64,000 nucleotides of DNA from SRR31156797_5219, one strand, 5' to 3'; numbered from the stretch's first letter, positions 3,958 to 26,080 are shown. Program-made: numbers and translations. The notes: generated by a model not told the origin, from the sequence alone.

Positions 3958-5535
3958 TTAATAGTAGCATGCTGCGGCCAGCAATTCGCTGGTGTAATCA
4001 TCTTTAGGGCAGTTAAAGATACTCTCTGTTTTACCTGTCTCTACTATTTCGCCGTTTTTCATAACAGCAACTCTGTGGCATAAAGACTTTATAACGCTTA
4101 GATCATGGCTTATGACTATATATGAAAACCCATATTTCTCCTGAAGATCTTTCAGTAAATCAATAATCTGAATCTGTACAGTCCTGTCCAAAGATGATGT
4201 AGCCTCATCGAATATAATTATCTCCGGCTTTAATATCAGTGCCCTTGCAATTGCTATTCTCTGTCTCTGCCCACCGGAAAATTCATGAGGATATCTGTTC
4301 AGCGTATCTGGGTTCAGCCCCACGTCATTAATAACTTTCATCAGCCTCTCATTTATAAGTTTTTTATCCTTAACTCCTGATGCCGAAAGCCCTTCAGAAA
4401 CTATCATTGCAACTGTCATCCTAGGGTTTAAACTTCCATAAGGATCCTGAAAAACAATCTGGATAAGGCTCCTTATCTCACGCATTTTCTTCGCAGAAAG
4501 AGACATAATATCCGTCTCTTTTAACATAACTTCCCCTCTCCCTTCGGTAAGTTTCAAAATTCCTCTTGCCAGGGAAGACTTACCAGAGCCGCTCTCTCCA
4601 ACAATCCCCAATGATTCCCCTTTCATAAGCTGAAATCCTACCCCCTTAACGGCATGAACCTCATATTTACCTCGGAGTCCGCCGTTCGTATAGCTTACGT
4701 GAAAGTCTTTCACATTGAGCAGTAACTCATCTGTCGCAAAAGATGATTTGCCCTCTGAGCTACCTGCAAGCAATCTTTGTGTGTAGGCTTCTTTTGGGCT
4801 GTTAAATATATCTTCGGTTATCCCTGATTCCACGACTAAACCTTCACGAACAACGGCGACTCTTTCAGCATATTTCCTAACAATCCCGAGATCGTGAGTG
4901 ATAAGCAGAACAGACATATCACGCTCGGCACTCAGCCGCTTAACAAGCTCTAATATCTGTTTCTGAACAGTAACATCCAAAGCTGTGGTCGGTTCGTCTG
5001 CAATCAGCAGATCGGGGTCTCCGGCCAGAGCCATAGCAATCATCACTCGCTGTCTCTCCCCACCTGAAAACTGGTGTGGATAGTGTTTAAGCCTGTTCTC
5101 TATCTCTCTTATACCTACCTCTCTCAAAAGCTTCTCAGCCCTCACTTCAGCTTCGCTTTCGTGCATCTTATCAACAAGGATAAGCCGCTCAGTTATCTGG
5201 CTAATTACATTATGAAGTGGATTAAGCGAAACCATAGGCTCTTGAAAAATATATGCGATCCTTCCGCCACGGATTTTACGCATATCATCCGCTGAAATGT
5301 CCACAAGCTCATTTGAATCAAGTTTTATCGACCCAGATTCTATTACGGCACCTGCGCTCTCCATAAGTGCTGTTACGGAATGAGCACAAACTGACTTTCC
5401 GGAACCGCTCTCTCCGACTAGGGCGAAGATTTCGCCTTTATAAATATTAAAACTAAAGTCGCGTACAGCTTCAACACGCCCGTTTTCACTTTCAAACACA
5501 ATTTTTAAATTATTTATTTCAAGTATATTTCTCAT
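3958..5535 (-). CDS. yejF: Peptide ABC transporter, double-domain ATPase (YejF-like)
   Basis: Two GESGSGKS Walker A motifs, two YPH(Q/E)FSGG signatures. Confidence 0.85.
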
Positions 5536-6557
5536 TTCTTACCTATATGTCTTGGGTCAAAAGCATCTCTGGCTGCCTCACCAATGAAGACGAGTAAGCT
5601 TAGCATAAGTGAAAGTAACACAAATGCCGACACCCCAAGCCATGGAGCATAAAGGTTTGACTTACTCGCCGCCAGAACCTCACCAATGGAGGGCGAACCT
5701 GGAGGCATACCAAACCCAAGGAAATCGAGAGATGTAAGCACTGTAATTGAACCGCTCAGTATAAACGGCAGAAAAGTCATAGCTGCAACCATAGCATTTG
5801 GCAGGATATGTCTGAATATTATCCCCCTATCACCGACTCCGAGAGCCTGCGCTGCTTGTACATATTCCAGCTTGCGACCTTTCAGGAATTCAGCACGGAC
5901 AACACCGACCAACCCCATCCAACCGAAAATCACCATAATAAAAAGTAGAGACCAAAACCCTGGTCTTATAAAACTGCTCATGATGATAAGAAGATAAAGC
6001 ATCGGTATGCCCGACCACACCTCTAGTAGCCGTTGACCTAAAAGGTCTATTTTCCCACCGTAGTACCCCTGCATTGCACCTACACATATACCTATAAAAG
6101 ATGTAATCAATGTTAGGGCAAAACCGAATAGGACAGACAGTCTGAAACCGTATAACAATCTCGCAAATACATCCCGCCCCTGATCATCTGTCCCGAGAGG
6201 ATTCTCTAATGAGGGTGGCGTAGGCGGTGGCTCAGGCAGATCATACCTTATCGTTGAATAGCTATATCTGATTGGAGCCCACAATATATATCCGTTTTCT
6301 TCTATCATATCTTTTAGGTACGCATCTTTGAAGTTAGCTTCAGTTTCGAAAAATCCGCCAAAATCTTTCTCTGTATATGTCACGAAAACGGGAAAGTAAC
6401 TATCGCCTTTATAGTTTATAAACAAAGGCTTATCATTTGCGATCACCTCTGCGAAAAGGCTGAGGATGAACATAAGTGAGAATATAATCAGGCTGGCTCT
6501 TCCTCGCTTATTTGCCCAAAATCTTTGGAGTCTGCGTTTATTAAAAGGTGAAAGCAT
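5532..6557 (-). CDS. yejE: Peptide ABC transporter permease (YejE-like)
   Basis: MLSPFNKRRLQRFWANKRG, IANDKPL, LGTDDQGRDV, RAEFL, LDFLGFG. Confidence 0.88.
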   Translation of the reverse strand: MLSPFNKRRLQRFWANKRGRASLIIFSLMFILSLFAEVIANDKPLFINYKGDSYFPVFVTYTEKDFGGFFETEANFKDAYLKDMIEENGYILWAPIRYSYSTIRYDLPEPPPTPPSLENPLGTDDQGRDVFARLLYGFRLSVLFGFALTLITSFIGICVGAMQGYYGGKIDLLGQRLLEVWSGIPMLYLLIIMSSFIRPGFWSLLFIMVIFGWMGLVGVVRAEFLKGRKLEYVQAAQALGVGDRGIIFRHILPNAMVAAMTFLPFILSGSITVLTSLDFLGFGMPPGSPSIGEVLAASKSNLYAPWLGVSAFVLLSLMLSLLVFIGEAARDAFDPRHIGKK

Positions 6558-6559
6558 AA

Positions 6560-7663
6560 CTAACCCCTCGAAGCCGCATCAAAATTTATCCTCGGATCAA
6601 TCAGACAATAAGTAAGGTCACTTATTATATTCAGAACAAGCCCCATAAGTGTAAAGATGTATAGGGTTGAAAACATAACAGGATAATCTCTGCTCATTGC
6701 GGCGTCAAAACCGAGCAGCCCAAGCCCGTCGAGAGAAAAGATTACTTCGATTAATAATGAGCCCGTAAAAAACATCGAAACAAAAACTGACGGAAAACCT
6801 GAAATGACAATCAGCATAGAATTTCTGAACACGTGCCCGTAAAGAACAGCTTTCTCTGTCAGCCCTTTCGCTCTTGCTGTGACAACATACTGCTTACCTA
6901 TTTCATCCAGAAAAGAGTTTTTAGTAAGCATTGTTAATGATGCGAAACTTCCTATGAGCATAGCAATGACAGGGAGACACATATGCCATAGATAATCAAA
7001 AACTTTTTCCATAAATGTCATCTGAGCAAAGCCATCGGACACAAGTCCTCTCAGCGGAAACCATGCGAAATAATTTCCGCCGGCGAAAAGAATTACCAGT
7101 AAAACCGCAAAGAGAAATACAGGGATAGCATTGCCGATTATTATAAAGAAAGAGCTCCAAACGTCGAACCTGCTTCCGTGCCGGACTGATTTTGCTATCC
7201 CCAGAGGTATACTCACCAAATATGTGAGTAGTGTACTCCAAAGCCCGAGGGAAATAGAGACAGGCATCTTCTCTCTCACAAGATCGATAACTGACTTATC
7301 GCTGAAAAAGCTGTCTCCAAAATTAAATATGGCAAAGTCTTTCAGCATATATAAATATCTAATATGTATTGGCTTATCAAAACCGTACAGTTTTTTAATT
7401 TTCTCCATAAGCTCAGGAGACAGCTCATCAGCTCCCTCAGCTTTCCCTGCAGGGTCAGATTCGTTTTTAATCTCTAGTGAGATATCATCAGACTCCTGAC
7501 GTAAAGCCCTCTCTTCCGCCTTGACCTCTTCACCTGTTATTCTCGCTATCATAGTCTCCATAGGTCCGCCCGGAGCCATCTGCACGATGAAAAAATTGAT
7601 TGTTATAATCCCTATAAGGGTTGGAATAACGAGGATAAATCTTCTGAAAATATACTTTCTCAT
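6560..7663 (-). CDS. yejB: Peptide ABC transporter permease (YejB-like)
   Basis: [45 protein letters not shown]. Confidence 0.9.
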
Positions 7664-9468
7664 CTATTTACCTGAGAATCAACGTAAGCAGCCTTTTCAG
7701 GGATTATCCACCATGTACCGAATCCAAAGCTATATTCAGGTGCTTTTTCCGGTTTGCCGAATTTATCCCAATATCCGACCCGATACCTGTTGCTATAGCC
7801 GGACGGGATGATGTAGTAACCGTTAAGAAGGACTCTGTCCAAAGCTTTTACCACGGTTACAAGTGTTTCTCTATCTTCAGAATTTACTAGCTTGTCTATA
7901 AGTTTATCCACAACAGGATTCTGTATCTTTGCATAGTTTTTACTCCCTACTTCATCAGCAGAGGAGCTGTGCCACATATTTCTCTGTTCATTCCCCGGTG
8001 ATAGGGACTGCTTTATTCGTGTAAAGATCATGTCGTACTCTTTATTCCTGACCTTGCGGACATACTGAGTAGAGTCAACATATCTGATATATAGATCAAT
8101 GCCCATCCGCTCCAAAGCTTTTTTAAACGGCATAAGTCTCTTCTCTATAGACTTAGAAGAGGTAAGCACTTCAAGTGAAACCTTTCGACCGTCAGGAGTA
8201 AACATCTTGCCGTCTTTATATGAGTATCCGTTTGAGGTCAGTATATTGACCCCTTGCATCAGCCCGGCTCTGTTATTCCCTTCCCCATCAGTTTCAGGAA
8301 GTTTAAATGCCGACGCATATCTCTCAACATCGGCGCCGACAGACTTAAGTATCTTTTTTTCAGCCTCGGGTGCATCCCCCGAAGCCATAAGCTCACTGTT
8401 AGAAAAATAGCTTCTATGCCTTATGTTCTGCCCGTAGTAAAGTTTGCTGTTTACCCATTCAAAATCGTAAGCGTAGGTCAGCGCTTTTCGCAGATTTATG
8501 TCTTTCAAAAAGCTGTTAGACGTATTCATTACCAGCCCCGCCATACCCATAGGTTTTTTATGCGGAACCTCTTCCTTCTTTATGAGACCTCTTTCGTGGT
8601 ACTTACCAGTATAGCCTTTATACCACCGCTGACTTGAGCCCTCGCTCCGCAGATCGTAGTGCCCAGCCTTGAAAGCTTCGAATGATACTGTCTGGTCTCT
8701 GAAATATTCATAAATAATTTTATCCGCATTATATCTGCCTACGTTTACAGGGACATCTCTCCCCCAGTAGTCAGGCACCCTTTCAAAAGATATTCTCTTC
8801 CCCGCTTCAAAGCTCCCGATTCTATATGGTCCGCTCCCCAGCGGGACATCAAGGGTACTTTTAGAGAGGTCTCTCTTCTCCCAATAGTGTTTCGGGATAA
8901 TTGTAAGCTGTCCTGCTATCAGAGGCATTTCATAGCTCGGCTCTTTTTCATCAAATTCGAATCTGACTCTGTAACTATCTAAAGCTATAACCTTTCTGAC
9001 CAGCTTGAAATAGTTGCTGTAAAAAGGACTCACCTCTGTAATCTTGTAGAAACTGAAAACCACATCCTCTGCTGTGATCGGTTTACCATCGTGCCACTTT
9101 GCACCCTTCCTCAGGTTAAACACGACAAAAGAATAGTCATCAGAATACTCTATAGACTCCGCCAGCAAACCGTAATATGTGGAGGGTTCATCATCAGATG
9201 ATTCCATCAGAGAATCGTACAGATATCCTCCGACACCAACTGCGGACCGACCTTTAATAGCAAAACTATTAAAGCTGTCGTATGTTCCAAAAGCACTCAT
9301 CCTGAGCTCCCCACCTTTCGGTGCATTGGGATTCACATAGTCGAGATGCTTAAAATCTGCACTGTATTTAGCTTTACCTACAAGAGAGTAAGCATGAGTT
9401 TTAATAACCTCTGCATGACCGGAAAAAGCGAAAACAGCGATGAAAGTCAGTATTGCAAATACTTTCAT
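7660..9468 (-). CDS. yejA: Peptide ABC transporter periplasmic binding protein (YejA-like)
   Basis: Signal peptide; [44 protein letters not shown]. Confidence 0.88.
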
Positions 9469-12302
9469 ATATTCTGCTCCGGCTCAAATCTAACTAAAAA
9501 CTGGCTTCTGTTCTTGATAAAAGTTCTGATAAATAAGTTCACATGCTCAACTTTCACTTTATCAAGGCGTTGTTTTGATTGTTCAATATTTTCAAGCTCA
9601 TCGCCGAAAAGAAGTTCAAAAGGTATGTAGTTCAGCCAGAATTTATCCTTCTTAGCTGACTCATCAAGCATCAGCTTAGCCTGTTCCTTAGCTGTGTTCA
9701 GGTCTTCCTCTGTCACACCCTTGTCAGCAAATTCACTTAGAATAACCTTAACAGACTCTATCAGCTCATCCGCACGGGAAGGATCGCAAGTAAATTTAAC
9801 TATACCGCTCGCCCTATCAGCTATGAACATATCAAGCATCATACTGCCGGATATGCTATAAACTCCACCTCTCTTCTCTCTAACCTCTTCTCTCAGCTTT
9901 TTTCTTATAATCTTGCTGGCTAATAAATCAGCTCCGTCATCCTCATCTAAGTCTTTAACTGTGCTCTCCATACGCATTATCACAGTTGTTTTAGGGTCAG
10001 CGGCACCCTGCTCAGTATAACCGCCGCTTTTTGATGCGAATCTCTGCCCTCTGTCAATATCTTTTGTTTTGCTTTTCAATTTTCCAGAAGGTTTGACAGT
10101 ACCAATATATCTTCCGAAAAGCTGTGCAGTTTTCTCGCTATTAACATCACCAGCAACGACAAAGACATAGCCATCTACATCTGCTAAAACTTCATTATAA
10201 ACCCTTAGAAAATCTTCACTTTTAAGTTTATCTGCATCTTCTTCAAGCAGATAGCCTCTACGATATTTCTCATTATAAAGTTTAGGCAGGGCTCTCCTTA
10301 TAAACATACCGAATCTGTTTCTTTCTGAGCTTTCAATGCTCTTCTTCATCCTTTCAAGAGCGATATCAAATGATTTTTCAGTAATATCAAAAGATGTCAG
10401 ATGCAGATTAAGAAGCTGCATAACAAGCTCCATATCCTCAACATCACCGCCGCCGAGCAGATATTCGTAATGTTCGCTCATGCCTGTTTTAACACTCGCT
10501 TTATGCCCTGCAAGGATTCTTGATATGTCAATTTTTGAAATACCCTTAAATCCGCTTGTGCCAATTACATTTTTAAGATTTGTGGCAACAATAAAATCCT
10601 CATCATTTAATATCGAAGTACCACCCTTACGCATGGCAAGAATCTGATACTTATTCTTATTTATCTCAGAAGGTCTCACATAAAGCTTTGCTCCATTTTC
10701 ATAAGTAAACAGATCAACTCCGATATGCTCCAGCCTCTCTTTCGCAGTAATTTTCCCAGATTTTTCCACCTTATCCATCAGGGTACTTCTGCCGGATGAA
10801 GACGCATCTTTCCCTATATCAGACCCCTTAACCTTATCCATGATGCTGGTGATTTTATCTTTATCAAGCTCAACCTTAGCCAGCATAGCCTCGGGGATCG
10901 TCAGCATGATGAGCCTGTCTTCCGTTTTTAATATCTCTTTCAGCTTTCTGTTAAAACTGGTTATATTCAGCTCAGCCACTACTTTTTCAAAGACCTCAAG
11001 CTCCTGCTCCGGCTCCATAAAGTCTTCGTCATAGAGATCGTAGTTTACTATGGCTCTAGCATGTCTTTTCGATTCGACTACCTCATCCTTTCTGGCGGCA
11101 CGCTTTATCATCTGTCTGAATATCTTTTCAAACTCTTCGAGCTCCTCCAGTGAGAATCCGTGCCTCTCTGCCCTTTCTATCTCTGTAAAGAACTCTTCCA
11201 GATTCTTACGGTATTCATCCTCTTTCAGTATTGTCATAAATCTGAATATCTCTGTACTTTCAGCCACCCGTGAGCTTATAGCTTTGAAAGAGTAAAGCTC
11301 TGTCTCTTTAGCGAGCTTTTTCCTCGAAATACGCTTATTAAGCATGAGCGCAACACCCTGTTTAAGTAAGTGCTCTTTGTAATCTTCATAAGTTTTCATT
11401 TTCTTATGGTTTGCCAGATGATCAAAAGTGAACGAAAGGTTTGGCGCTTCTTTATCTGATATAGTCTCAAATCTGAACCTCTTCTTAAGAGGAACATCAG
11501 TAGATGCCTTTTCTGGTGTGTTTCTCTTCTCCATAGATTCAAAATTACTTTTTATAAGCTTTTCTGTCTCTTTCACATCTATATTACCAACAACAACCAC
11601 AGACATATTCTCAGCGGTATACCATTTATCGTAATAACCTTTCAAAAGCTCTTTATTAGCTTCTCTAACAACTTCCATAAGACCGATAGGCTCTCTTTCA
11701 GGGTAAAGTGACCCAGCAAGAATATACGCTCTCGACTGGTTTCTCAGCCTGGATCTATAATCATTCCTCATACGCCACTCTTCAACGATGACACCCTTCT
11801 CTTTCTCTATCTCCTGCTCGTCGAAAGTGAGTCCATCAGCCCAATCTCTTAATATAAGAAAAGATTTCCCCACCAGCTCAGGTTTATCCAGAGGGACAGA
11901 AAGCTGATAGTTTGTAACATTCGTAGAGGTGTAAGCGTTACTGTGCTTCCCGAACGTAAGCCCGAGTGACTCCATAAAATCTATTACACCGTTTTGGGGG
12001 AAGTTCCTTGTGCCGTTGAAAGCCATATGCTCAACAAAGTGGGCGAGCCCTCTCTCCTCTTCTGTTTCATTAAGCGAACCTGTTCTTACATTAAGCCTGA
12101 GTTCTACGATATCATCCGGCAGTTCGTTATGCCTTATATAGTATTTCAGCCCGTTTGCAAGCTGTCCGGTCAGAACCTCAGAGGTTAACGGAAGGGGGGT
12201 CCCCTCACTTTCATTTATTTTAGCGGACTGCCCGTTTGAACAAGCAGCTACAATCAAAGTGGTAACAACAATCAAAAATACTCTAACTTTACTTACGCTC
12301 AT
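9465..12302 (-). CDS. pqqL: M16-family zinc protease (PqqL-like), probable lipoprotein
   Basis: GLAHFVEHMAFNGT (HxxEH inverted zincin), NAYTS, EKGVIVEEWR, LREEVRE..GGVY; lipobox VAAC. Confidence 0.88.
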   Translation of the reverse strand: MSVSKVRVFLIVVTTLIVAACSNGQSAKINESEGTPLPLTSEVLTGQLANGLKYYIRHNELPDDIVELRLNVRTGSLNETEEERGLAHFVEHMAFNGTRNFPQNGVIDFMESLGLTFGKHSNAYTSTNVTNYQLSVPLDKPELVGKSFLILRDWADGLTFDEQEIEKEKGVIVEEWRMRNDYRSRLRNQSRAYILAGSLYPEREPIGLMEVVREANKELLKGYYDKWYTAENMSVVVVGNIDVKETEKLIKSNFESMEKRNTPEKASTDVPLKKRFRFETISDKEAPNLSFTFDHLANHKKMKTYEDYKEHLLKQGVALMLNKRISRKKLAKETELYSFKAISSRVAESTEIFRFMTILKEDEYRKNLEEFFTEIERAERHGFSLEELEEFEKIFRQMIKRAARKDEVVESKRHARAIVNYDLYDEDFMEPEQELEVFEKVVAELNITSFNRKLKEILKTEDRLIMLTIPEAMLAKVELDKDKITSIMDKVKGSDIGKDASSSGRSTLMDKVEKSGKITAKERLEHIGVDLFTYENGAKLYVRPSEINKNKYQILAMRKGGTSILNDEDFIVATNLKNVIGTSGFKGISKIDISRILAGHKASVKTGMSEHYEYLLGGGDVEDMELVMQLLNLHLTSFDITEKSFDIALERMKKSIESSERNRFGMFIRRALPKLYNEKYRRGYLLEEDADKLKSEDFLRVYNEVLADVDGYVFVVAGDVNSEKTAQLFGRYIGTVKPSGKLKSKTKDIDRGQRFASKSGGYTEQGAADPKTTVIMRMESTVKDLDEDDGADLLASKIIRKKLREEVREKRGGVYSISGSMMLDMFIADRASGIVKFTCDPSRADELIESVKVILSEFADKGVTEEDLNTAKEQAKLMLDESAKKDKFWLNYIPFELLFGDELENIEQSKQRLDKVKVEHVNLFIRTFIKNRSQFLVRFEPEQNI

Positions 12303-13440
12303 TTTTCGCCTCTATATATTTTATTATTTTCTCTGCTCTATTTCCGTAATCTTTATTATTTCTAAGCTTTTGAAATACTCTCTCTGCTCTCTCATATTCT
12401 CTGTTCTTCAAATAAGAAATCCCTGCCATATAGGTATATTTCCCTTCTCTGTCCTCGTATCTTTCAAAGAACTCACCAGCCTGACGGTAGTCTTTGTTCA
12501 TAAAATACACATATGCTAACTGTCTTCCGGGATCAACACCGCACTTACGCCCCAGAGCAACCCTGAGAACAGCTTCCGCATCGGTGTACCTCTCAAGTTT
12601 ATAAGCGGCTACACCCTCTCGCATAAGGTCACCACACTCTTTCTCTTCCTGAGACATCGACTTATAAATCATGTATGCCTCATCATATATTTTCAGTCGG
12701 CTGAGAACTCCTGCGAGATGTTTTTTATCTTCAGCAACGCCTCCTGTCAGCTTAAGGTATATTTTAAAAGCGGCGGCGGTCTCTCTGGCATTCTTCACAT
12801 ATAAGCCGTACAGCTTCCACCATTCAGGATTATCTCTTGTATCTAATGAACTGAGCAGCTTCTTAGCCTTACCAAATTCACCATCAGTAGCGTATGAAAA
12901 CAGAAGCATTTTATTATCCTGCTTATTCCTCTTCGAAATTTTAGAAAGATAGCCAGCAATGTCTTTTTTTCTATCCAGCTTGAGAGCGACATATGCCGCT
13001 AATCTGTATATATCATCTCCACCGCCATATCTGACTGCCTGTGAAATGCTCTTCTCCGCTTCCTCAAACATACCTGAGCTGTATGCCGCAGAAGCGGCGT
13101 TATACCAAAGGTCACTCTTGTTTTTATAAAATCTGGCGGAGTCCCGGTAATGCTTAAATGCAAGGTTTGAGTCACCCATCTTTAGATGAGCGTTCCCTAA
13201 AATCATGTCCGCCATCCCATGTTTATCACCACCGCTGTTTTTCATGTAATAATCCATAGTGATAACAGTCTTTTTATATTCACCCTTTTTATAATGAGTA
13301 TAAGCTTCAGCGTATGCTTTTCGCATTCCGTCTGTCATCCCCGCATCCAGCTCTGCACCGTATGCACTCAGACAGACAAAAAAGCAGAGAATTAAAACTA
13401 TCTTTCCAGTAAAAAACTTATAGGCACTATTACGCCCCAT
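12289..13440 (-). CDS. Periplasmic TPR protein (TtpD-like)
   Basis: Signal peptide, repeated Tyr/Ala-rich helical pairs; follows tonB. Confidence 0.75.
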   Translation of the reverse strand: MGRNSAYKFFTGKIVLILCFFVCLSAYGAELDAGMTDGMRKAYAEAYTHYKKGEYKKTVITMDYYMKNSGGDKHGMADMILGNAHLKMGDSNLAFKHYRDSARFYKNKSDLWYNAASAAYSSGMFEEAEKSISQAVRYGGGDDIYRLAAYVALKLDRKKDIAGYLSKISKRNKQDNKMLLFSYATDGEFGKAKKLLSSLDTRDNPEWWKLYGLYVKNARETAAAFKIYLKLTGGVAEDKKHLAGVLSRLKIYDEAYMIYKSMSQEEKECGDLMREGVAAYKLERYTDAEAVLRVALGRKCGVDPGRQLAYVYFMNKDYRQAGEFFERYEDREGKYTYMAGISYLKNREYERAERVFQKLRNNKDYGNRAEKIIKYIEAKNERK

Positions 13441-14078: not shown

Positions 14079-14086
14079 CAGGTAAC

Positions 14087-17082: not shown

Positions 17083-18329
17083 CTTCTACGCTCAGCACCC
17101 ATAAATATAAACAGGATAAATGGGATGAACCCGCCGAAGAGTATGAAAACTGAATCACCTAGCGCCTGTTTAGTCTCTTTCTTACTGTAAAACCTGTATC
17201 CGAGATATATCAGAGTGAGCAAAAGAGACAGAACTAACGCATAAACCGGTCTCTCAGTGAAAACGACGTGCAGATCATCTTTATACCCATATCTCTTGCT
17301 TGTCTTAATGACCAGAGGGAATAAGGCGTCATACCCTGCAAGGACAGCATCCGAGTAACGCTTTTCATAGGTGTGAATATTCTTTTTATAGAGTTCCCCT
17401 TCCTTGTCAAAAACATACGAGATCATCTCTTTCTCGCCGGAAACCTTCATAAGGGTGTATATAGGATCGCTGAAAATGATTAAGTGCTCTCTCCGTACAT
17501 CAATTTTCCCTATATTAAGTTTTTCATACTTATACCCGTCTTTGCTAATTGTATAGACATCTCCTGCTTTGCTGTAGATAAGACCGAATGAAGGATTTAC
17601 CCTGTCCTCATTAATAGACATATAATCAACATCTATCTCTGACGGCAGCTTAGTGTCTTTCACAAAAGGCTCATCTTTCACTTTTTTCATATGGAAAACT
17701 CTGCCTTCTGAGTCTTTGATAAAATATCCGTAATCAAAAGCTTTCCGCACATTTGTATTACCCGCAATCAACTCAGCGGGGAAAGTGAAGCCAGCCTTAA
17801 GGAGTGCTTCATTAAATTTTATGCTCATCTCCTCATTAACTCTCTTTGTCTTACCATCAACAAATTCAATCCTGTCCTTAATCCTGAAAAGCTCCATAGG
17901 CATGACTAGTTTACTAAACTCACTCGCTGACTCAAAAAGCGGATACAGAGGTATCCTGTTCCTGAGACCATCTGCATATCTAGGTGAAACACTATAGAAA
18001 TATTTGTTTCTGCCAACCTCTTCAGCGGGGATATACTTCCCGGCTATTACGTCAGGATATGTTCCCCATTTCATAAGATCTCTGGTAAACAAAAACGGTA
18101 ACAGTTCAGTGAACTCAGCTCTGGAATATTCGTTGCCCGCTATATCCATATATTTTGTAGGCTCATTTTTAACCTTATCCATATATACAAAATCATCTAT
18201 GACAGGGCTGAAAAATATCGTCGGGCTGGAAGCAAAAGTTTTAAATGTTGTCTTATATAAAGAGGGAGCTACCACCAGTAAGCAAAATACCGCAGCCAAT
18301 ATAAGGGTGTATCTTGTTAAATACCTCAT
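17079..18329 (-). CDS. Membrane protein with large periplasmic domain (DUF4857-like), probable ABC accessory subunit
   Basis: N-terminal TM, FFSPV, LLPFLF, LYPLFES, FDYGYF motifs, C-terminal TMs; family assignment from memory. Confidence 0.6.
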   Translation of the reverse strand: MRYLTRYTLILAAVFCLLVVAPSLYKTTFKTFASSPTIFFSPVIDDFVYMDKVKNEPTKYMDIAGNEYSRAEFTELLPFLFTRDLMKWGTYPDVIAGKYIPAEEVGRNKYFYSVSPRYADGLRNRIPLYPLFESASEFSKLVMPMELFRIKDRIEFVDGKTKRVNEEMSIKFNEALLKAGFTFPAELIAGNTNVRKAFDYGYFIKDSEGRVFHMKKVKDEPFVKDTKLPSEIDVDYMSINEDRVNPSFGLIYSKAGDVYTISKDGYKYEKLNIGKIDVRREHLIIFSDPIYTLMKVSGEKEMISYVFDKEGELYKKNIHTYEKRYSDAVLAGYDALFPLVIKTSKRYGYKDDLHVVFTERPVYALVLSLLLTLIYLGYRFYSKKETKQALGDSVFILFGGFIPFILFIFMGAERRR

Positions 18330-18997
18330 TAGAAATCCCCCTTTCTGAATCTATATGCGGGACTTAGAATAATCGGTATGATAATCAGAATCGACAATAA
18401 GTACGGAAGCCACTGCCCGTCGAAGCTGTTGTATCCACTACCTCTGCTGAAAATAAAATTCAACGGCATAAAAGCAACAATCAGAAGTGCCTTTCTTAAT
18501 TTATTAGGCTCAAGGGTTATTACTACTGCATATAAATACAGTGCGATAATGGAATAGTAGTCCTTAATGAACAAAACCGAGACAGCTTTGCTTAATTCTG
18601 AAGGGAAGTAAAATGACGTTATCGCAAGCACACAAAAGGCATCGAGAAGTGCGATTACTGAAAGATATGTAACACCTGCTAAAACCATTAGCGCAATCAT
18701 CTTCCCCTCTTTTAAAGGCAGGTGGCATGATATCCTGAATCTCTTTTTATCTACCTCAGGCAAAAACTGATATACGCCCACAGCTACTGCAGTGAGATGC
18801 ATAATTCCAACCACAAAAGTGTAAAAAATACTATTCTTCTCAATAATCTGCATCCAGACATTAACAGTTGTACTGACCGCAAAAGACGATTTCATATTTA
18901 TAAATAACTTAGCAGTTGCTCCCATATTAATTAACAGGGCTCCTAGTAAAAATAACCGCATCTTCTTATATTCTTTAAAAAATATTTTTCTTAACAT
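18329..18997 (-). CDS. Six-TM membrane protein, probable ABC permease
   Basis: FFKEYKK start, QFLPE...RISCHLPL, hydrophobic segments; follows the ABC ATPase. Confidence 0.65.
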   Translation of the reverse strand: MLRKIFFKEYKKMRLFLLGALLINMGATAKLFINMKSSFAVSTTVNVWMQIIEKNSIFYTFVVGIMHLTAVAVGVYQFLPEVDKKRFRISCHLPLKEGKMIALMVLAGVTYLSVIALLDAFCVLAITSFYFPSELSKAVSVLFIKDYYSIIALYLYAVVITLEPNKLRKALLIVAFMPLNFIFSRGSGYNSFDGQWLPYLLSILIIIPIILSPAYRFRKGDF

Positions 18998-19005
18998 TTC
19001 TTCTC

Positions 19006-19899
19006 CTAATACTTTCCGGTAAGGGCTATGAAAGCGTCTTCAAGCGATAGTTCCTTCTGTGAGAAATCTGTTATCCCGCCAATCCCTTCACTCAAAGCTG
19101 CACCAGCTTCATCAAAACTAAGCGGACTAACAACCTCGAAGCCCTTACTAAGCAATGAAAAATCTTTTATAAAATCCATCTCATCAAGCTTTTCAGGAGG
19201 AGAATCCATATTGAAATAGTATTTATGTAAGCCGTCTTTTAGTTGATCTATTGGTGAATGTTTTAAAACCAGACCTTTATCAATTATTATCGCATCGTCC
19301 ACAAACCTCTCCAGATCCTGAACAATATGGGATGTTATCAATACTGCCTTATTAAGCTGTTTAGAGTAGTAGGTGAGCCTGTCCAAGAAAAGCCTTCGGT
19401 ACCCTGCATCAAGTCCCATAGAGAAATCGTCTAAGATTAGAATCTCAGCTCCTTGCGCCATAAGTACGGCTAAAGCGACCTGAGACCTCTGCCCGCAGGA
19501 CATATTCTTCACCTTATGAGTCTTTTTAAGGGCAAGTTTAGACATCATTTCACCGTAGATATCTTTGTCCCAGTCCGGATAAAACGCAGCATAGAACTCT
19601 TCTGTCTCCTGAATTGTGAAAAACTCATAAGCCAGATGTCCTTCATGCAGAAGCCCTATCTTTCTTTTTATACTGTTACTAAGATCGTAAGCATGCTCAC
19701 CAAGTACCATACAGGTACCTGCATCCGGTCTGAGAAACCCCATCATGATGTTAATTGTTGTAGTTTTACCTGCTCCGTTCTTCCCCAGAAGACCAAATAT
19801 CTTACCTCTGCTCACATCAAAGCTAAGCCCGTGTAAAACTTTATTCTTCCCATAGGTATGTTCAAGATTATTTATCTCTATAACACTGTCAGAACTCAT
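19006..19899 (-). CDS. ABC transporter ATP-binding protein (exporter-type)
   Basis: GKNGAGKT, MSCGQ signature, ILILDD Walker B, SH switch. Confidence 0.9.
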   Translation of the reverse strand: MSSDSVIEINNLEHTYGKNKVLHGLSFDVSRGKIFGLLGKNGAGKTTTINIMMGFLRPDAGTCMVLGEHAYDLSNSIKRKIGLLHEGHLAYEFFTIQETEEFYAAFYPDWDKDIYGEMMSKLALKKTHKVKNMSCGQRSQVALAVLMAQGAEILILDDFSMGLDAGYRRLFLDRLTYYSKQLNKAVLITSHIVQDLERFVDDAIIIDKGLVLKHSPIDQLKDGLHKYYFNMDSPPEKLDEMDFIKDFSLLSKGFEVVSPLSFDEAGAALSEGIGGITDFSQKELSLEDAFIALTGKY

Positions 19900-22444
19900 A
19901 TTTTACTCCTGCCCAAAAATTTCTCCCCATCTCATATGTTTTGTAACTATCATTACCATAATAGCCGTAACCGTTTACAATCTTTCTGTTCAGAAAATTA
20001 TTAATGTCTAATGTGAAGATAACTTTGTGCCTCTTAAAAAAAGTTTCCTCATACTCAAGCCGCAGATCAACCAGGATACTCGGCTCAAACTGCTTCTTTT
20101 CATACATCGAAGCCGTTATCGTCTCCGGTTCGCCGGTTTGCGGGTCTATTTCGCCTGTATTTTTTATAGTTATTGAAGTAGCTGTCTTAACTATCTTCTG
20201 ATATGAAGCGCGATATTTAATCATTGGGGAGATTTTTAATCTCTTAAAATATTTCCCTGTATATGTTAGGTTTGCGATAATTGGTCTGTTAAAATTATTC
20301 TTCGGTAGATCAGCTAAGGTTATAACTTCACCGTCATAAATAACCTGCTCTTCAAGATCCTCAAGGTCTATTTCATCATCATAATTCACCTGAGCAGTCT
20401 TAGATTCCTGCCACATAACATTAAAGAGTACATTATGATCTTTCCAGCTTCTGTCCCATTTAAACTGAACCGACTGGAACGAGCTGCTTCCGTTATTATT
20501 CATGGTATAATAATCTCTCTGCCCATTGGTTCCGATCACTTTCTCCTTTGCAAATTCATCCTTATTTTTTCTTGTTATGTATTTAACATTCGCAGTTCCG
20601 CCTAATAAGTATTGAGCGACACCAAGTACATACTCATCAGAATAGGGCGTCCTGAGCTCGCTATATTTGTATAAGGTATCTTCATTAGCCGTTACAAGTG
20701 TCCAGTCCTCCACCTCGTTTTGATATGTGTTTCGTATGTATTCGACCTCATTTGGCTGCTGAGAACGAAGCTTATGGTCAAGGATATTTGAGCCGTAATA
20801 CTTATTGTAACCTGTTATAATTACTGTTCTTTTATTATCAAAAACATCATATTCAAGATGAGTTCTGGGTGATAGGTCGTGATTTTCCATATAGTCGTTA
20901 TACTCATACCTAAGCCCCATTCTGAACATGAGCCGCCAAAAGCTGTATGAGTCCTGAGCATATAAATTGAGCTGGTTAATCTGAACATCATTCTTATACG
21001 CAGGTTTATAGTCGAGCTGTTGAAAATACTGCTCTCCTTCTATGCAGTCTATCCCTTCGGATTCACCACACCTCACATCCTTATCTTCTTTAGCCACTTG
21101 ATAGTCGTAAACAGCATCTGGCTGCTCCATCTCTGCACCTAGCAGAGAGTAGCTAGCCCCATAGAACAGTTTATGCTTACCCGCAAACTCAAAGCTGGCA
21201 GACGTCTGCTCAATTTTAAGGTTCAGGGTCTCTTCTGCTTTATTAAGATCACCATACCCGCCTTCGTTACTCCCCGTCTCCATGCTGATATTATCTTCGG
21301 CATAAACATCTGTATCCTCACCGGCAAAGCCCCAGTCTTTAGAACCAGTAGCTGCCCAATGATAAAAGGTATTGTTAGCTTTACGGTTGTTGAACGATCT
21401 GGAGTAGTCGCCCTGTATCTCAGTTTTCTGTTCGCCATTCTCTTTTACATACTTTAATATTGTATAATACCCGCCGCCTTCAACATCAAACCGGCTGTCT
21501 TTAACGTTTGGATAATATCGAACCTCCTTGTAAGGAGAGTATGTGAAAGAACCCTCTAAATAGCTTGAACCGTCAAGATTATGCAGCCCTTTTACATAGA
21601 AAGAGTGACTCTCTCTAGTCTCTTTCTGCCATTTGTTATAAAAACGTACCGGTATTGTTGAATCGAGATATTTATAACCGAGCATCACAGAGCTCTTTTT
21701 GCCAACAGGAGTATTCAGAACTGTGTTGAAGTAATGTTTTTCGAATTGGGGCTGATACTCAGAACTGTTGTTACTGTTTTCAAACTCCTCTTTTTTTAAT
21801 CTATCAATATAAAAGGTGCTCCACGACGACCTTGTTGTCCTGTATGATATACTTCCCCAAAGCTTCCTTGAGGGCGACTTAGTCTCTACATCGACCACAC
21901 CACCGATAAAACCACTGTACTTAACCGGGATATTGCTGTCGTAAACGGTGACTTCCTTCACAACAGAAGAATCGAGAAAGAATTTCTGCGGATGCCCTTC
22001 AACGTTGCCAACCTTATATACATTATCCTCTGCCGGGCTCATATAGCTCGAATTGACCATTCCGTCTATAAGGAATAGGTTCTGATAATCTTTACCACCG
22101 GATATTGAAACCCTCGCAGGTTTTATCTCTCCGCCGGTAAAAGAACTGCCATATTCATCATCAAACTGAACCCCTGGAACTATACGCAGCGCCTCTGTAA
22201 TATCGCCGTTACCTTTCGGAAGCATGTCAATAACATCTTCTGAAATAACACTTTTACCCTCTACTGAGTCCTGAGATACTTTCCCTTTAACTTTTACTTC
22301 ATCGACGATTAACATGTTTTTTAAATCATCAGCAGAAAGCTCTTCGGAAGCGCCTCTCTCCTCTGCAAAACAGACTGAACCAGTAAAAATAAAAAGGATG
22401 ACCGCAAAAGCGGCCACCCTAAAATTGTTAAAACCTAATTTCAT
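19889..22444 (-). CDS. TonB-dependent outer-membrane transporter (YddB/FusA-like)
   Basis: Signal peptide, DEVKVKG TonB box-like, plug GEIKPARVSISGG..QNLFLIDG, GFIGGVVD, C-terminal GRNFWAGVKYEF. Confidence 0.88.
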   Translation of the reverse strand: MKLGFNNFRVAAFAVILFIFTGSVCFAEERGASEELSADDLKNMLIVDEVKVKGKVSQDSVEGKSVISEDVIDMLPKGNGDITEALRIVPGVQFDDEYGSSFTGGEIKPARVSISGGKDYQNLFLIDGMVNSSYMSPAEDNVYKVGNVEGHPQKFFLDSSVVKEVTVYDSNIPVKYSGFIGGVVDVETKSPSRKLWGSISYRTTRSSWSTFYIDRLKKEEFENSNNSSEYQPQFEKHYFNTVLNTPVGKKSSVMLGYKYLDSTIPVRFYNKWQKETRESHSFYVKGLHNLDGSSYLEGSFTYSPYKEVRYYPNVKDSRFDVEGGGYYTILKYVKENGEQKTEIQGDYSRSFNNRKANNTFYHWAATGSKDWGFAGEDTDVYAEDNISMETGSNEGGYGDLNKAEETLNLKIEQTSASFEFAGKHKLFYGASYSLLGAEMEQPDAVYDYQVAKEDKDVRCGESEGIDCIEGEQYFQQLDYKPAYKNDVQINQLNLYAQDSYSFWRLMFRMGLRYEYNDYMENHDLSPRTHLEYDVFDNKRTVIITGYNKYYGSNILDHKLRSQQPNEVEYIRNTYQNEVEDWTLVTANEDTLYKYSELRTPYSDEYVLGVAQYLLGGTANVKYITRKNKDEFAKEKVIGTNGQRDYYTMNNNGSSSFQSVQFKWDRSWKDHNVLFNVMWQESKTAQVNYDDEIDLEDLEEQVIYDGEVITLADLPKNNFNRPIIANLTYTGKYFKRLKISPMIKYRASYQKIVKTATSITIKNTGEIDPQTGEPETITASMYEKKQFEPSILVDLRLEYEETFFKRHKVIFTLDINNFLNRKIVNGYGYYGNDSYKTYEMGRNFWAGVKYEF

Positions 22445-22453
22445 ATTTTAAGC

Positions 22454-25400
22454 CTAATCAGCATAGAAAGGAGTGGCATCAACTGTGTTTAGTTTACCAT
22501 CACCATCTATATCATCGTCTCTTTCGAGACCAGATTCTGCTATATCTTCTTCGCTCGACAATACGTCAAAGAAGTCAGGCTTGCCATCTTTATCAAGATC
22601 GTATGTAGCAACATCTTCATCTTCGAAAGCGTCACCAGCCAGCATAGCTTTAATGAGTTCATCCATACCATCAATATAATCACCGTAGGAATCTGCAAAA
22701 AATATCTTAGCTTTCTTTAAGCCAAGATCGTAAAGTCCTAGTTCAGCATAAGATTTCAGTATGTACTCATAGCGAGTTACTCTCGTACTATCCTTATCTA
22801 TGTCTTGCGTTGCTGTAGCTGTAACCTCGAGCCCGGCAATAGCAGAAGCCATGTCTCCTGCAGAAGCATAAGTCTCAGCTATTACCCTTACCGTATCAGC
22901 TTCCTCATAAGCTTCTTTATATGTCTGACCAGTAGCACCAGTAAATATTCCTGCTGCATAAGTCATAGCAGAGGCAAGTTCTGTTTTAGCTGATTCATAG
23001 TCATCAAGCATTATATAGTCTTTAGCGATATTCAGTTTGATATCAGCGAGATCTTCATTCTCAAAGTTTGCATCACCCTCGGCTGAGGCAAACACTGCTC
23101 TCGCTTTTGCAAGAACAGAAGCAACATCGTAAGATGGATCGATATCCTGAGCATGAAATGCGATTGTTGCGTAAGCTGTTGTTTTATTAACCGAATCAGT
23201 GCAATTATCCGTGTAGCTGATAGCCTTATCTATCTGGGCAAGGGCGGTTTCATTATCACCAAGCTCACTGTAAAGTGTAGCAATCTTAACATATCCTCTC
23301 TCTCCCTCTCTATTAGAAGAAGATACGAACACATCTAGCTCACCAGTAAAATCTACACTATTAGCCGCCATATAAGCCACAGCCGCATCAAGCTTACCCG
23401 TGGCATAATCGAGAGCTTTCGTCGCCAGTACGCTATCACCTGATTCAATCGCCTCAAGTGCAACACCCTCGTTTGCCCTATTATGAGCAAAGTATACCCA
23501 CGCATCAATGTAGTCATCAACATTGCCATAATCACTATCTAAAGGAAGAACTGACTCAAAAGATGTAACCGCAGCATCATAATCATCCTTACTGCTGACA
23601 AGAATAATGCCTTTTACTGCATTCAGGCGGTATGAGTCTTTAGTTATCATAGACAGAATCATCTCTGCCTCAGAATTCTCTCCAGCCCAATAAAGAGCTC
23701 CGGTGGCTTTTGAAAGATAAAACATCCACTGTGTACCACCCTCTGAATTGTCAGCCTCGTACTTAGGCTTCATATAATTTGTGTAGACGTCAATGACTTT
23801 AGCTTTATTCTCAGTATGAACGTAGTACCCTAATACATCCACATAGTAAATAAGGTGAGATGAATACCGCTTACCAGTCCTTGTTCCGAGCGGCAGGTTT
23901 TCAATATAGCCAACAAGATCCTCAGTAGCTGATTCGATCTCAGCAATTGATGCACCCTCATCAACTAAGTCTTCAATAAAACCACTCAGCGCACTAATAA
24001 AGCGGCTGAATATTGTTGTCTTATAACTTTCATCCAGACTGTCTATCTGGGCATCAATATAGGTTTTCAGAGTTGCCTCTCTCTCTGCATCCCCAATTGC
24101 GCTATATGTTCTCATAAGACTGACAAGCTCGCCAGCCTCATCTTTAGTGAAAGGTTCAGTAGGGTCTGCCTCTCTAATCCCCTTAAGGAGAGATTCAGCT
24201 TTCTGAGCATATGCAGAAGCGTCATCAGATGCTCCGCCGTGCTTATTAATATATTTCGCTATGTAACGATAAGCCTTCGCTTTATTAAGCGTTTTTATAA
24301 TAAGGGAATCAGCAATAGCAGTCGCTTTAGCAAAATGACCACCTTTTGAATAATCTAAAACACTTCTGAGATTTATCTCATCGTTAAGATCATCATCACG
24401 TACATCTGCTGTAAGCTTTCTCGCTTTATAGCCAAGGTTTATGTTTGAGTTATAGTAGTAAGAAGCGATAGCCTCATTCGTATCAGCCAAAAGGTCGTCA
24501 TCACCTAAAGGCACACTAACTACATATGCCGGACCAGCGGCAACAATATTTGCCACATCTTCGGCAAACTGCTCATTATCAGCAAGAGCTGTCAGGTTTG
24601 CAGCAAAGTTTTCTGAAATAAAATCGTCATAGCCTGAAAGACTGTAGTCACTCGCAACGACATAGCGCACCAGCTGATAAACGATAAACTTCTCAGCAGG
24701 AAGATTTGCCGCTGCCTGCTTCAATGCCTCAACAAACAGAGCCACATTGGCAGTGTATTGCTCTGATACCGTCTCAGGCTCATCAGTAATGAGACTGCCG
24801 ACAGCATTTTCAATAAGCTTTTCAATCTGAGCAGCAACAATACTGGAAACAACATCAGAACCAGCCTCAGTATCTTTAATTATCTGAGCAGTCTCCTGAA
24901 GCTCTGCAACCTTATCAGCATAGTCAGCATCATCATCGAAATCATCGTATATAACATTCAGTCTCGAAGCGACAAAATTTCCGTTATCTTCGAAAAGCTT
25001 CTGAGTAGATGTCCCGTTAACAGTCGCTCCGGCGATAAGCTCAAAAGGCTCATCAGACAATTGCGCACCCTGCTCATTGACCATCTCTCTGTATTTGATA
25101 GCGAGACTTACTAAAAGGTAAGATTTTTTGAAAAGTTCTGTATCACCGGAAGGATCAGCAAGAACATCAGCACTATCACTCAGTCCAAGAGCCTGCTTCG
25201 CATGTGCTTTCATCTCTTCTATAGTTCCGCCGTTCTGCATCATTATTGTAGTGATAGGCGATACAACAATCTCATCTTTACTCTCTGTAAATGCAGCGAG
25301 TGGCGATTCAAAAGAGAAGGATTCCATATCGACATTTGTCTCCGTATCGATACCGCCAAAAGATTTGACATAATAAAGAGTGAGATCAGCATCTTCAGGC

Positions 25401-25669
25401 AGTACAAACGCAAATTCACCATTCTCGTCTGTATAATCTCTGCAAGTTAACTGACCGGTTGTTCCACAAATGACAGCGACTGAATCGTCACTGATAAGCC
25501 TGAGTTCTACAGTTGCCCCGGATATAGCAGGGTCTGAAACGAGCCCGCCTACACTAGTAGTTGTACTGGTGGTGCCACCATCCGGATTTGGGCTACTGCT
25601 GCCCCCGCCGCCGCCGCACGCCGTAACCAGCAATACTGCGGGGATAATAAGAAACAATAATTTTTTCAT
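22454..25669 (-). CDS. Large acidic lipoprotein (1071 aa) with helical repeats and C-terminal DxDxDG Ca-binding-like motifs
   Basis: Lipobox VTAC then G/S/T linker; TPR-like middle; DLDKDGKPDFF and DDDIDGDGKLN at the C-terminus. Confidence 0.8.
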   Translation of the reverse strand: MKKLLFLIIPAVLLVTACGGGGGSSSPNPDGGTTSTTTSVGGLVSDPAISGATVELRLISDDSVAVICGTTGQLTCRDYTDENGEFAFVLPEDADLTLYYVKSFGGIDTETNVDMESFSFESPLAAFTESKDEIVVSPITTIMMQNGGTIEEMKAHAKQALGLSDSADVLADPSGDTELFKKSYLLVSLAIKYREMVNEQGAQLSDEPFELIAGATVNGTSTQKLFEDNGNFVASRLNVIYDDFDDDADYADKVAELQETAQIIKDTEAGSDVVSSIVAAQIEKLIENAVGSLITDEPETVSEQYTANVALFVEALKQAAANLPAEKFIVYQLVRYVVASDYSLSGYDDFISENFAANLTALADNEQFAEDVANIVAAGPAYVVSVPLGDDDLLADTNEAIASYYYNSNINLGYKARKLTADVRDDDLNDEINLRSVLDYSKGGHFAKATAIADSLIIKTLNKAKAYRYIAKYINKHGGASDDASAYAQKAESLLKGIREADPTEPFTKDEAGELVSLMRTYSAIGDAEREATLKTYIDAQIDSLDESYKTTIFSRFISALSGFIEDLVDEGASIAEIESATEDLVGYIENLPLGTRTGKRYSSHLIYYVDVLGYYVHTENKAKVIDVYTNYMKPKYEADNSEGGTQWMFYLSKATGALYWAGENSEAEMILSMITKDSYRLNAVKGIILVSSKDDYDAAVTSFESVLPLDSDYGNVDDYIDAWVYFAHNRANEGVALEAIESGDSVLATKALDYATGKLDAAVAYMAANSVDFTGELDVFVSSSNREGERGYVKIATLYSELGDNETALAQIDKAISYTDNCTDSVNKTTAYATIAFHAQDIDPSYDVASVLAKARAVFASAEGDANFENEDLADIKLNIAKDYIMLDDYESAKTELASAMTYAAGIFTGATGQTYKEAYEEADTVRVIAETYASAGDMASAIAGLEVTATATQDIDKDSTRVTRYEYILKSYAELGLYDLGLKKAKIFFADSYGDYIDGMDELIKAMLAGDAFEDEDVATYDLDKDGKPDFFDVLSSEEDIAESGLERDDDIDGDGKLNTVDATPFYAD

Positions 25670-25801
25670 AAAGAATCTCCTTTAATAAATTATAATTTTC
25701 GGGATTCGGAGATCCTCTACATATTATATTTTCAAAAACTTAATAAACTAAACAGCTAAGCATAATGTGTACCCAATATACAGGGACACACCGCCTAGAT
25801 T

Positions 25802-25820
25802 GATATTGACTATCACTATC
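25802..25820 (-). promoter_or_regulatory. Fur box overlapping a sigma70-like promoter of the TonB operon
   Basis: GATAGTGATAGTCAATATC is 16/19 to GATAATGATAATCATTATC; TTGACA -35 on the minus strand at 25830-25835. Confidence 0.8.
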
Positions 25821-26080
25821 ATGAAAGTCTGTCAAGAAAAAACCACAACATCAACAAACCTCCTTTAAATCACGTCAGCGGCTATAGTTAGAGAATGACA
25901 TTCTTATTATTTCAACTTTAGATTATTCAAGAAACTGCCAAACGTCAGTAAAGCACTGATGATGCCTAAATATATACATGTTCTAAGTCGATCATTTTAT
26001 ATAGAGTTAACATTTGAAAGAATTTCATAGTAAAGATGCATAGAGAGCAACTACGGTTAGATTAATATTTTTCAGGAGCC

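Follow-up and report, generated by a model that had tools for sequence, protein, structure and literature searches.

A stretch of 64,000 nucleotides of DNA from SRR31156797_5219 (the window, meaning the whole stretch that was analysed) carries 16 open reading frames (ORFs) on the minus strand, which run from 25669 down to 3958 and which we propose to read as one operon for protein import. The widest inter-gene gap is 9 nt: 4 of the 15 junctions are gaps (9, 8, 8 and 2 nt) and the other 11 are overlaps of 1 to 43 nt. The domain content of the encoded proteins was assigned with Pfam and NCBIfam models, and the transporter, the protease, TonB, YejA and the ATPase were compared by sequence with all solved structures. 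A reading made earlier from the DNA alone (the sequence-only reading) had described 16 same-strand, tightly packed genes for a lipoprotein, a TonB-dependent transporter (TBDT), an ABC module, a motor extending from TtpB to a TPR protein, an M16 protease and Yej proteins; the ORF coordinates bear out the packing, and the Pfam and NCBIfam results match the list. The genes, and the signals that accompany them, are as follows.

22454..25669, minus strand: lipoprotein of 1071 aa with a lipobox and a TPR-like solenoid; no Pfam or NCBIfam family.
19889..22444, minus strand: FusA/YddB-family TBDT of 851 aa with a Plug domain, placed by its solved-structure matches.
19006..19899, minus strand: ABC ATPase of the ABC-2/ABCA-like kind, from PmtA/DrrA/GldA-like models below cut-off and from ABCA structures.
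18329..18997, minus strand: membrane protein of 222 aa with five hydrophobic segments; no family, ABC-2-permease-like as a lead only.
17079..18329, minus strand: DUF4857 membrane protein (PF16149, 279.2 bits against a cut-off of 25).
16336..17082, minus strand: TtpB-like protein (DUF3450, 6e-49).
14993..16339, minus strand: TtpC-like protein, by domain matches a DUF3450-like N-terminus with a MotA_ExbB C-terminus.
14488..15003, minus strand: ExbB, by domain match.
14087..14491, minus strand: ExbD, by domain match.
13398..14078, minus strand: TonB with a TonB2-like C-terminal domain (TonB_C); best solved relative 2k9k, 'TonB2', 3.3e-12.
12289..13440, minus strand: TPR protein in the TtpD position, by domain match.
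9465..12302, minus strand: PqqL/FusC-type M16 metalloprotease of 945 aa with the motif HFVEH and the lipobox IVAAC.
7660..9468, minus strand: YejA-family periplasmic binding protein (SBP_bac_5; 7z8e, 4.6e-141).
6560..7663, minus strand: YejB permease (541.7 bits, cut-off 445).
5532..6557, minus strand: YejE permease (478.6 bits, cut-off 439).
3958..5535, minus strand: YejF-like double ABC ATPase (613.6 bits, under the equivalog cut-off of 834).
25802..25820, minus strand: Fur-box-like site GATAGTGATAGTCAATATC, a 16/19 match to the consensus GATAATGATAATCATTATC.
25668..25720, minus strand: hairpin in the 5' untranslated region, whose 5' arm carries the 17-mer GAGGATCTCCGAATCCC (25717..25701).
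22395..22420, minus strand: GC-rich stem-loop of 11 pairs, 7 of them G-C, with a T-run.

The transporter and the protease, whose genes lie in one cluster, make up the core of the system. Among the solved structures, the transporter is closest to FusA (4zgv; 7.2e-93, residues 34-850), followed by YddB (6ofr; 9.6e-61), and the next match, PirA, reaches merely 2.4e-3. Because the matches to FusA and YddB lie far ahead of that to PirA, a grouping with siderophore or B12 receptors was not seen, and the FusA/YddB affinity that had been suggested for the barrel was borne out. The protease matches 9ldy, an M16 entry without a name, at 1.5e-98, PqqL (6ofs) at 3.9e-96 over residues 37-930, and the FusC structures 6b03, 6brs and 6b05 at about 1e-39 (7.2e-40 for 6b03), in agreement with its earlier assignment to the PqqL/FusC type; half-size M16 enzymes match the 945-aa protein much more weakly. 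The HFVEH motif at residue 88 is an intact HxxEH and is followed by an acidic EEWR stretch, and the N-terminus is predicted to be a signal peptide with a lipobox. Among 10 orthologues, five have a clear lipobox, one an ambiguous one and four a plain signal peptide; therefore, membrane anchoring differs between lineages, and the protease is predicted to be periplasmic, either anchored or free according to the lineage. The pairing of transporter and protease is kept in related loci. Such a FusA-type barrel with a PqqL/FusC-type protease is the defining pair of Fus and of the 'protease-associated import systems' (PMC6793856), and by sequence the core of the operon is an import system of this Fus/YddB-PqqL type.

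The lipoprotein encoded by the first gene begins with MKKLLFLIIPAVLLVTAC (lipobox LVTAC), which is followed by GGGGGSSS, a flexible Gly/Ser/Thr tether. A search of 1.84 billion cluster representatives gave 240 family members at E values up to 1e-3. Most of the relatives among the 150 matches listed are about 1050-1100 aa long, and the shorter ones are probably fragments. A structure modelled from an alignment of 46 sequences (pLDDT 88.5, pTM 0.83) has a beta-sandwich at residues 37-136 and then helical repeats up to about residue 1010, which form a TPR-like solenoid of about 870 aa, and the C-terminus carries Asp-rich loops of the DxDxDG type that are nearly invariant across the family. The fold search with this model returned nothing beyond generic TPR scaffolds, and the Atlas feature match is a cluster without a name. 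From the position of the gene and the modelled fold, we infer that the protein may be a capture or lid partner of the barrel.

Between the ABC genes and the protease gene lie the six motor genes, for TtpB (DUF3450), TtpC (a long N-terminus with MotA_ExbB), ExbB, ExbD, TonB and the TPR protein, in this order. The closest solved entry to the TonB C-terminal domain, named TonB2, presumably comes from Vibrio anguillarum. The same domain order is reported for the Vibrio TonB2/TonB3 clusters (PMC6957404), so that the Vibrio TonB2-style motor recognized in the sequence-only reading is supported both by the six domain types in order and by 2k9k as the best solved match. A TtpC-like gene was also found in another genome (G433:C3 10498..11835) that gave no DUF4857 or M16 match; therefore, the TtpC-type motor occurs apart from this system too. 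A further TtpC-like gene adjoins a DUF4857 gene (G406:C20, about 61963..65092), which may be another long-form copy.

The yej genes are joined by 4-nt overlaps to the receptor-protease operon. YejB and YejE both exceed their curated NCBIfam cut-offs, and YejF is the best-scoring model for the ATPase, which has a double ABC domain and falls short of the equivalog cut-off. The YejA-type protein matches, besides 7z8e, YejA entries at about 1e-124 over residues 23-598 and MbnE at 1.1e-115, and no NCBIfam model scores above its cut-off with it. The genes had been called YejA/B/E/F-like from the DNA alone; this stood for YejB, YejE and the YejA-type family, whereas the YejF assignment remained under its equivalog cut-off.

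The third to fifth genes encode the ABC ATPase, the 222-aa membrane protein and DUF4857. The ATPase is scored by the PmtA, DrrA and GldA models, all under cut-off, and its closest solved chains are the nucleotide-binding domains of ABCA1/3/7/4. The 222-aa protein has no Pfam or NCBIfam family and no solved sequence relative; its language-model features match, at 0.95, an Atlas cluster auto-named 'ABC-2 family transporter', which serves as a lead only. DUF4857 was modelled (pLDDT 84.9) with an N-terminal transmembrane helix, a beta-rich, propeller-like periplasmic domain and C-terminal transmembrane helices, and fold searches gave generic beta-propeller blades only (Foldseek TM about 0.2; VIA Z up to 8.8). 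No protein identical to the DUF4857 of the window is present in a collection of 5.8 billion proteins, in which the best match has 49% identity. Judged from its neighbourhoods, the combination of ABC ATPase, ABC-2-like permease and DUF4857 is a fixed trio. As the trio has an exporter-like ATPase and no binding protein, and as the periplasmic domain of DUF4857 is large, one might speculate that the trio performs a mechanical or extractive task at the periplasmic side rather than acting as a classical importer.

The layout of the operon is conserved in related genomes. The M16 protein was used as a query that fetched at least 80 loci, in which all 16 proteins were then compared by tblastn. DUF4857 lies beside M16 in 4 of the 80 M16 loci listed (L002, L003, L004 and L008), and these four belong to the top six M16 matches listed, which come from Deferribacteraceae/Mucispirillum metagenome-assembled genomes (MAGs) and one Spirochaetota MAG; Mucispirillum is a member of the Deferribacterota. 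Locus L004 shows a 13-gene form on one strand, in the order lipoprotein, TBDT, ABC, permease, DUF4857, ExbB, ExbD, TonB, M16, YejA, B, E and F. This form, whose motor is a plain ExbB-ExbD-TonB set, is carried by three Mucispirillum/Deferribacteraceae MAGs (L002, L004 and L008): L002 and L008 resemble L004, with ExbB and ExbD missed by tblastn in both and the lipoprotein missed in L008. In the Spirochaetota MAG (L003) a 9-gene form runs from ExbB, ExbD and TonB through a lipoprotein of 848 aa, TBDT, ABC, permease and DUF4857 to M16 and then ends, with no yej genes.

The relatives of the 16-gene form were found by a TtpC search of the phylum that holds the Mucispirillum MAG (68 genomes). The Deferribacterota genomes G428, G432 and G435 contain every gene in the order of the window, with protein identities to the window from 34% (TtpD) to 83% (YejB) in G428 and from 27% to 77% in G432 and G435, and a fourth genome, G434, has the leader motif, DUF4857, TtpC and M16 in matching order. 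The synteny search proposed with the sequence-only reading thus turned up the whole layout, kept as a unit, in other genomes (G428, G432, G435 and L004). Within the phylum, 21 of 68 genomes have DUF4857, and 0 of the 401 genomes sampled in the class of G001 do. A CheA-like protein encoded in another part of the window shows 74% identity to its counterpart in G428 and 55% to that in G435; the match to G428 therefore indicates that the window comes from a relative of G428, and from these sequence matches we place the host among the relatives of the Deferribacterota genomes and not in Vibrio. To judge from the same comparisons, the operon seems to have been inherited vertically, and the source lineage appears to be without a close sequenced relative in the collections compared.

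The trio has a wider distribution than the operon, and in metagenomes it is often found close to M16 protease and TBDT genes. A metagenome scan with a DUF4857 alignment matched 216 stretches; 93 of these proved to be relatives, and the best 80 were retained. Neighbourhoods were counted in the 44 loci that extend 5 kb or more on one side; several of these are near-identical and were counted separately. The ABC ATPase and the small permease adjoin DUF4857 in 44 of these 44 loci, and an M16 match by tblastn is present in 23 of them. By tblastn, a FusA-like barrel is found in 3 of the 80 best loci (L171, L174 and L181) and the lipoprotein in one (L174). Locus L181 contains a 1056-aa ORF of no family, a TBDT, the ABC trio, two M16 genes (918 and 924 aa) and TonB, after which come an ExbB-like ORF, an ORF in the ExbD position, YejA and YejB. 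A distant variant of the trio locus is represented by L112 and the like (L104-L123 type; L112 359..14430). Its 939-aa M16 protein has half-size M16 enzymes, not PqqL, as best solved relatives, and its barrel, of the CarboxypepD_reg-Plug kind, has no solved sequence relative and stands beside two DUF4876 proteins. In this type the M16, barrel and DUF4876 genes are divergent from a set for ABC, permease, DUF4857, histidine kinase and sigma-54 response regulator.

A related locus has been described in Bacteroides thetaiotaomicron, in which BT3625-33 is up 37- to 128-fold in iron-depleted medium and contains DUF4857, an ABC ATPase, a TBDT and DUF4876 lipoproteins (PMC10434189). The DUF4876 lipoprotein BT3632 is predicted on the outer face of the barrel BT3633, and the proximity of the two is kept in 59 genera (bioRxiv 10.1101/2023.03.17.533168). 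Barrels, partner lipoproteins, long M16 proteases and the DUF4857 trio are therefore combined repeatedly, with non-homologous parts in the same positions, which argues for a shared task.

Ahead of the first gene, the 16/19 Fur box (25820..25802) that had been noticed in the DNA was recovered, and it is the single match with up to three mismatches in the 64-kb window, against an expectation of 0.04; at least one match occurred in 3 of 100 shuffles. A TTGACA hexamer (25835..25830, minus strand) lies 9 nt upstream of it. Promoter-like sites within the operon are fewer than in shuffles (26 against 43.2), and terminator-like sites number 18 against 12.4 in shuffles (standard deviation 3.4). In the genome of the window, Fur probably represses the operon when iron is plentiful, as judged from this site. 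The whole case for iron control of the operon is the Fur-like box, a site that fits the consensus well in two operons (window and G428) and poorly in two others (G435 and G432).

The leader between the box and the first gene is itself conserved. The 17-mer, located 32 nt before the start codon of the lipoprotein gene, does not vary among the leaders in the window, G428, G432 and G435, and the G434 leader departs from it at a single position (related loci L099-L102). Four of the 68 genomes in the phylum contain it, each just once and in every case at this operon, and elsewhere in 1.75 Mb of fetched loci there is no match with up to two mismatches. In all five leaders, the minimum-energy fold pairs the 17-mer with the Shine-Dalgarno sequence and the start codon (z -2.0 to -3.2); the 3' arms differ among the operons, and the pairing is partly maintained by G-U pairs. 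From these sequences, the hairpin looks like a translational gate on the lipoprotein gene. The stem-loop at 22395..22420 lies just past the lipoprotein gene, within the signal-peptide codons of the transporter, and stem-loops of differing sequence occur at the same junction in six of six lineages (window, G428, G435, G432, L004 and L003), those of the relatives (L093, L096, L098, L004 and L003) being minimum-energy folds without shuffle controls. It is a possible attenuator or mRNA stabiliser, and it may set the level of the lipoprotein above that of the downstream genes, as stem-loops do for the binding-protein genes of ABC operons.

When the operon is compared with known systems, the nearest is the Fus system of Pectobacterium, in which ferredoxin enters intact via FusA with the TonB homologue FusB and is then cleaved by FusC (PMC6793856, PMC7593965, PMC6042079). 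Of the components FusA-FusB-FusC-FusD, FusA is the best solved relative of the transporter and FusC is related to the protease; both operons encode a TonB homologue, although the closest solved relative of the one in the window is TonB2. The logic of protein import followed by periplasmic cleavage is that of Fus (PMC6793856) and would apply here by homology. However, the operon adds the TPR lipoprotein and the ABC-2/DUF4857 trio, replaces a lone TonB homologue by a six-gene motor of the TonB2 style, and carries YejABEF where Fus has the 'inner membrane transporter FusD', a contrast drawn from the description in PMC6793856; furthermore, its host is not proteobacterial and its protease is predicted to be lipid-anchored. 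The YddA-YddB-PqqL system of E. coli supplies the close solved relatives YddB (9.6e-61) and PqqL (3.9e-96), and PqqL is described as periplasmic with iron-dependent expression (PMC6793856), but that system as described there has no partner lipoprotein, own motor, DUF4857 module or Yej genes in the operon.

The Vibrio TonB2/TonB3 clusters share with the operon the same six domain types in the same order, a likeness taken from their description rather than from sequence, and in V. vulnificus the first gene of the TonB3 operon likewise encodes an outer-membrane receptor (PMC6957404); what TonB3 does is not known, according to PMC10734418. In contrast with those clusters, the motor here is set between the ABC trio and the protease, and TonB2 serves siderophores. 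The B. thetaiotaomicron locus BT3625-BT3633 is alike in DUF4857, a hypothetical membrane protein, an ABC ATPase, a TBDT, partner lipoproteins and induction by iron starvation, but differs in having DUF4876 lipoproteins instead of the TPR giant, PepSY proteins and, in the published list, no M16 or Yej; the metagenome loci related to it add a 939-aa M16 of another subtype. As for the importer, YejB and YejE score above their cut-offs, and YejA structures and MbnE are among the closest solved binding proteins of the YejA-type protein, whereas the yej genes of E. coli and rhizobia, in the accounts consulted, stand alone and are known from antibiotic-peptide uptake; here they lie within a receptor-protease operon. 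No description of the combined architecture or of a role of DUF4857 was found in the literature covered, in which the gene-context Fig. 2 and Table S1 of PMC6793856 were outside the comparison; the main text of that paper is without the words 'ABC transporter', 'lipoprotein', 'oligopeptide' and 'Vibrio'.

We suggest that the operon encodes one self-contained import-digest-uptake system of the Fus/YddB-PqqL kind that reaches from the cell surface to the cytoplasm, a reading to which we assign a probability of roughly 0.55. The tethered TPR lipoprotein would bind its substrate, a protein or a large peptide, beside the FusA-type barrel. By analogy with Fus, the barrel would then pass the substrate into the periplasm, driven by the TtpB-TtpC-ExbB-ExbD-TonB-TtpD motor of the operon. 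The PqqL/FusC-type M16 protease, lipid-anchored here, would cut the substrate, as its homology and its intact HxxEH suggest, and YejABEF, again from homology, would move the fragments, perhaps with a metal cofactor, into the cytoplasm; to judge from its position, YejABEF would replace the inner-membrane transporter of Fus. The ABC-2-like trio would be an obligatory companion; our best guess is that it uses ATP to handle the substrate or its cofactor at the periplasmic face of the inner membrane. Expression would be set by Fur repression together with the leader hairpin, which would hide the ribosome-binding site of the lipoprotein gene. The idea that whole metalloproteins are imported and cleaved and their fragments taken up, as proposed in the sequence-only reading, is an extrapolation of the same scheme by analogy.

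Several points weigh against this reading. The sigma-70 scan upstream of the operon found no complete minus-strand promoter, and the Fur-box match is good in only two of the four operons scanned, with 16/19 in the window and G428 and poor values of 14/19 in G432 and 13/19 in G435. The surface exposure of the lipoprotein is a prediction, and the place of the ABC-2/DUF4857 trio in the route is a guess. The YejA family also serves muropeptide recycling (bioRxiv 10.1101/2022.07.15.499691), and since it includes MbnE as well, the cargo may be something other than plain peptides. For the TonB3 clusters of V. vulnificus and T. turnerae, iron regulation is reported to be absent and iron uptake to proceed without them (PMC6957404, PMC10734418), which calls for caution, as one and the same machine may be used for protein or peptide nutrition in general.

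This last consideration leads to the reading in which the machine is the same but its purpose is the scavenging of protein or peptide for amino acids, nitrogen and carbon, with iron control local to some genomes. The dedicated peptide importer kept in both the 16- and the 13-gene forms and the weak Fur boxes of G435 and G432 would suit it, as would the report that TonB3 of V. vulnificus is induced by serum or low-casamino-acid minimal medium and not by iron limitation (PMC6957404). However, the 16/19 boxes of the window and G428, the related DUF4857 locus of B. thetaiotaomicron, which is among its most iron-starvation-induced loci (PMC10434189), and the description of Fus and PqqL as iron-related (PMC6793856) point the other way, and we regard scavenging as possible but rather unlikely. 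A cargo of another kind would be a peptidic metallophore, exported by the trio, re-imported by the barrel and YejABEF and processed or released by the M16 enzyme. We consider this very unlikely: YejA is nearly as close to MbnE of the methanobactin operon (1.1e-115) as to YejA, the trio ATPase is exporter-like, and DUF4857 trios are often near M16 genes without a FusA-like barrel, but the operon is without precursor or modification genes, its barrel and protease belong specifically to the FusA and PqqL/FusC groups, and a TPR solenoid of about 870 aa would be an improbable receptor for a small chelate.

That the genes are separate neighbouring modules without a common task, or that the barrel exports the protease, as a Myxococcus transporter reportedly does, is in our view highly improbable. 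The yej genes are missing from the spirochaete form, the motor type differs between the forms, and the ABC trio is also found with other kinds of barrel, all of which would be expected of independent modules; nevertheless, 16 genes keep an identical order with tight junctions across genomes at merely 27-83% protein identity, 11 of the 15 junctions in the window overlap, and the same set is reassembled in other lineages. Extremely improbable, finally, is a role in defence, in which antimicrobial peptides or bacteriocins would be imported, cut by the protease and cleared by YejABEF. YejABEF is tied to antimicrobial-peptide sensitivity or resistance in several bacteria (PMC4994006, PMC10924461, PMC8406287), but an energised import barrel with a capture lipoprotein would be a costly and risky answer to a toxin, the Fur-box and iron-starvation links do not fit, and the operon has no immunity-type genes.

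To our knowledge, protein import via TonB-dependent barrels is known from very few systems, and we know of no established substrates outside Pectobacterium, nor of established steps after cleavage, for such systems. If the import-digest-uptake reading is right, the operon supplies a parts list, natural and conserved, that covers the route from end to end (lipoprotein, FusA-type barrel, private motor, PqqL-type protease and peptide importer), with candidates for the periplasmic handling of imported protein and for the passage of the products into the cytoplasm. It would also tie three uncharacterised families, namely the TPR lipoprotein of about 1070 aa, the small permease and DUF4857, to a protein-import route, and would extend such systems past the Proteobacteria surveyed in PMC6793856 to the Deferribacterota, including gut Mucispirillum MAGs, and to a spirochaete MAG. 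A broader and more tentative idea, which we think unlikely, is that these loci represent an undescribed multi-phylum class of TonB-dependent protein-import machines with the DUF4857 ABC complex as an integral part. The complex would then be an ATP-driven puller, unfoldase or cofactor extractor between the FusA-type barrel and the PqqL-type protease, and the products would be cofactor-bearing peptides, such as Fe-S peptides or haem-peptides derived from c-type cytochromes. This would account for the presence of a peptide importer so firmly joined to the operon. In that case DUF4857 would gain its first function, including in BT3625-33 of B. thetaiotaomicron.

Upstream of the operon the minus strand continues with other genes. 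A histidine kinase/sigma-54 response-regulator pair (28220..31325, minus strand) was considered as the regulator of the operon and was dropped because it is not beside the operon in G428, G435 and G432. Directly upstream of the operon, at 26154..28079 (minus strand), is a gene for a multihaem cytochrome c of 641 aa. A selenocysteine tRNA gene (RF01852, 65.1 bits) at 31528..31620 on the minus strand is the sole Rfam match above the gathering score in the window.

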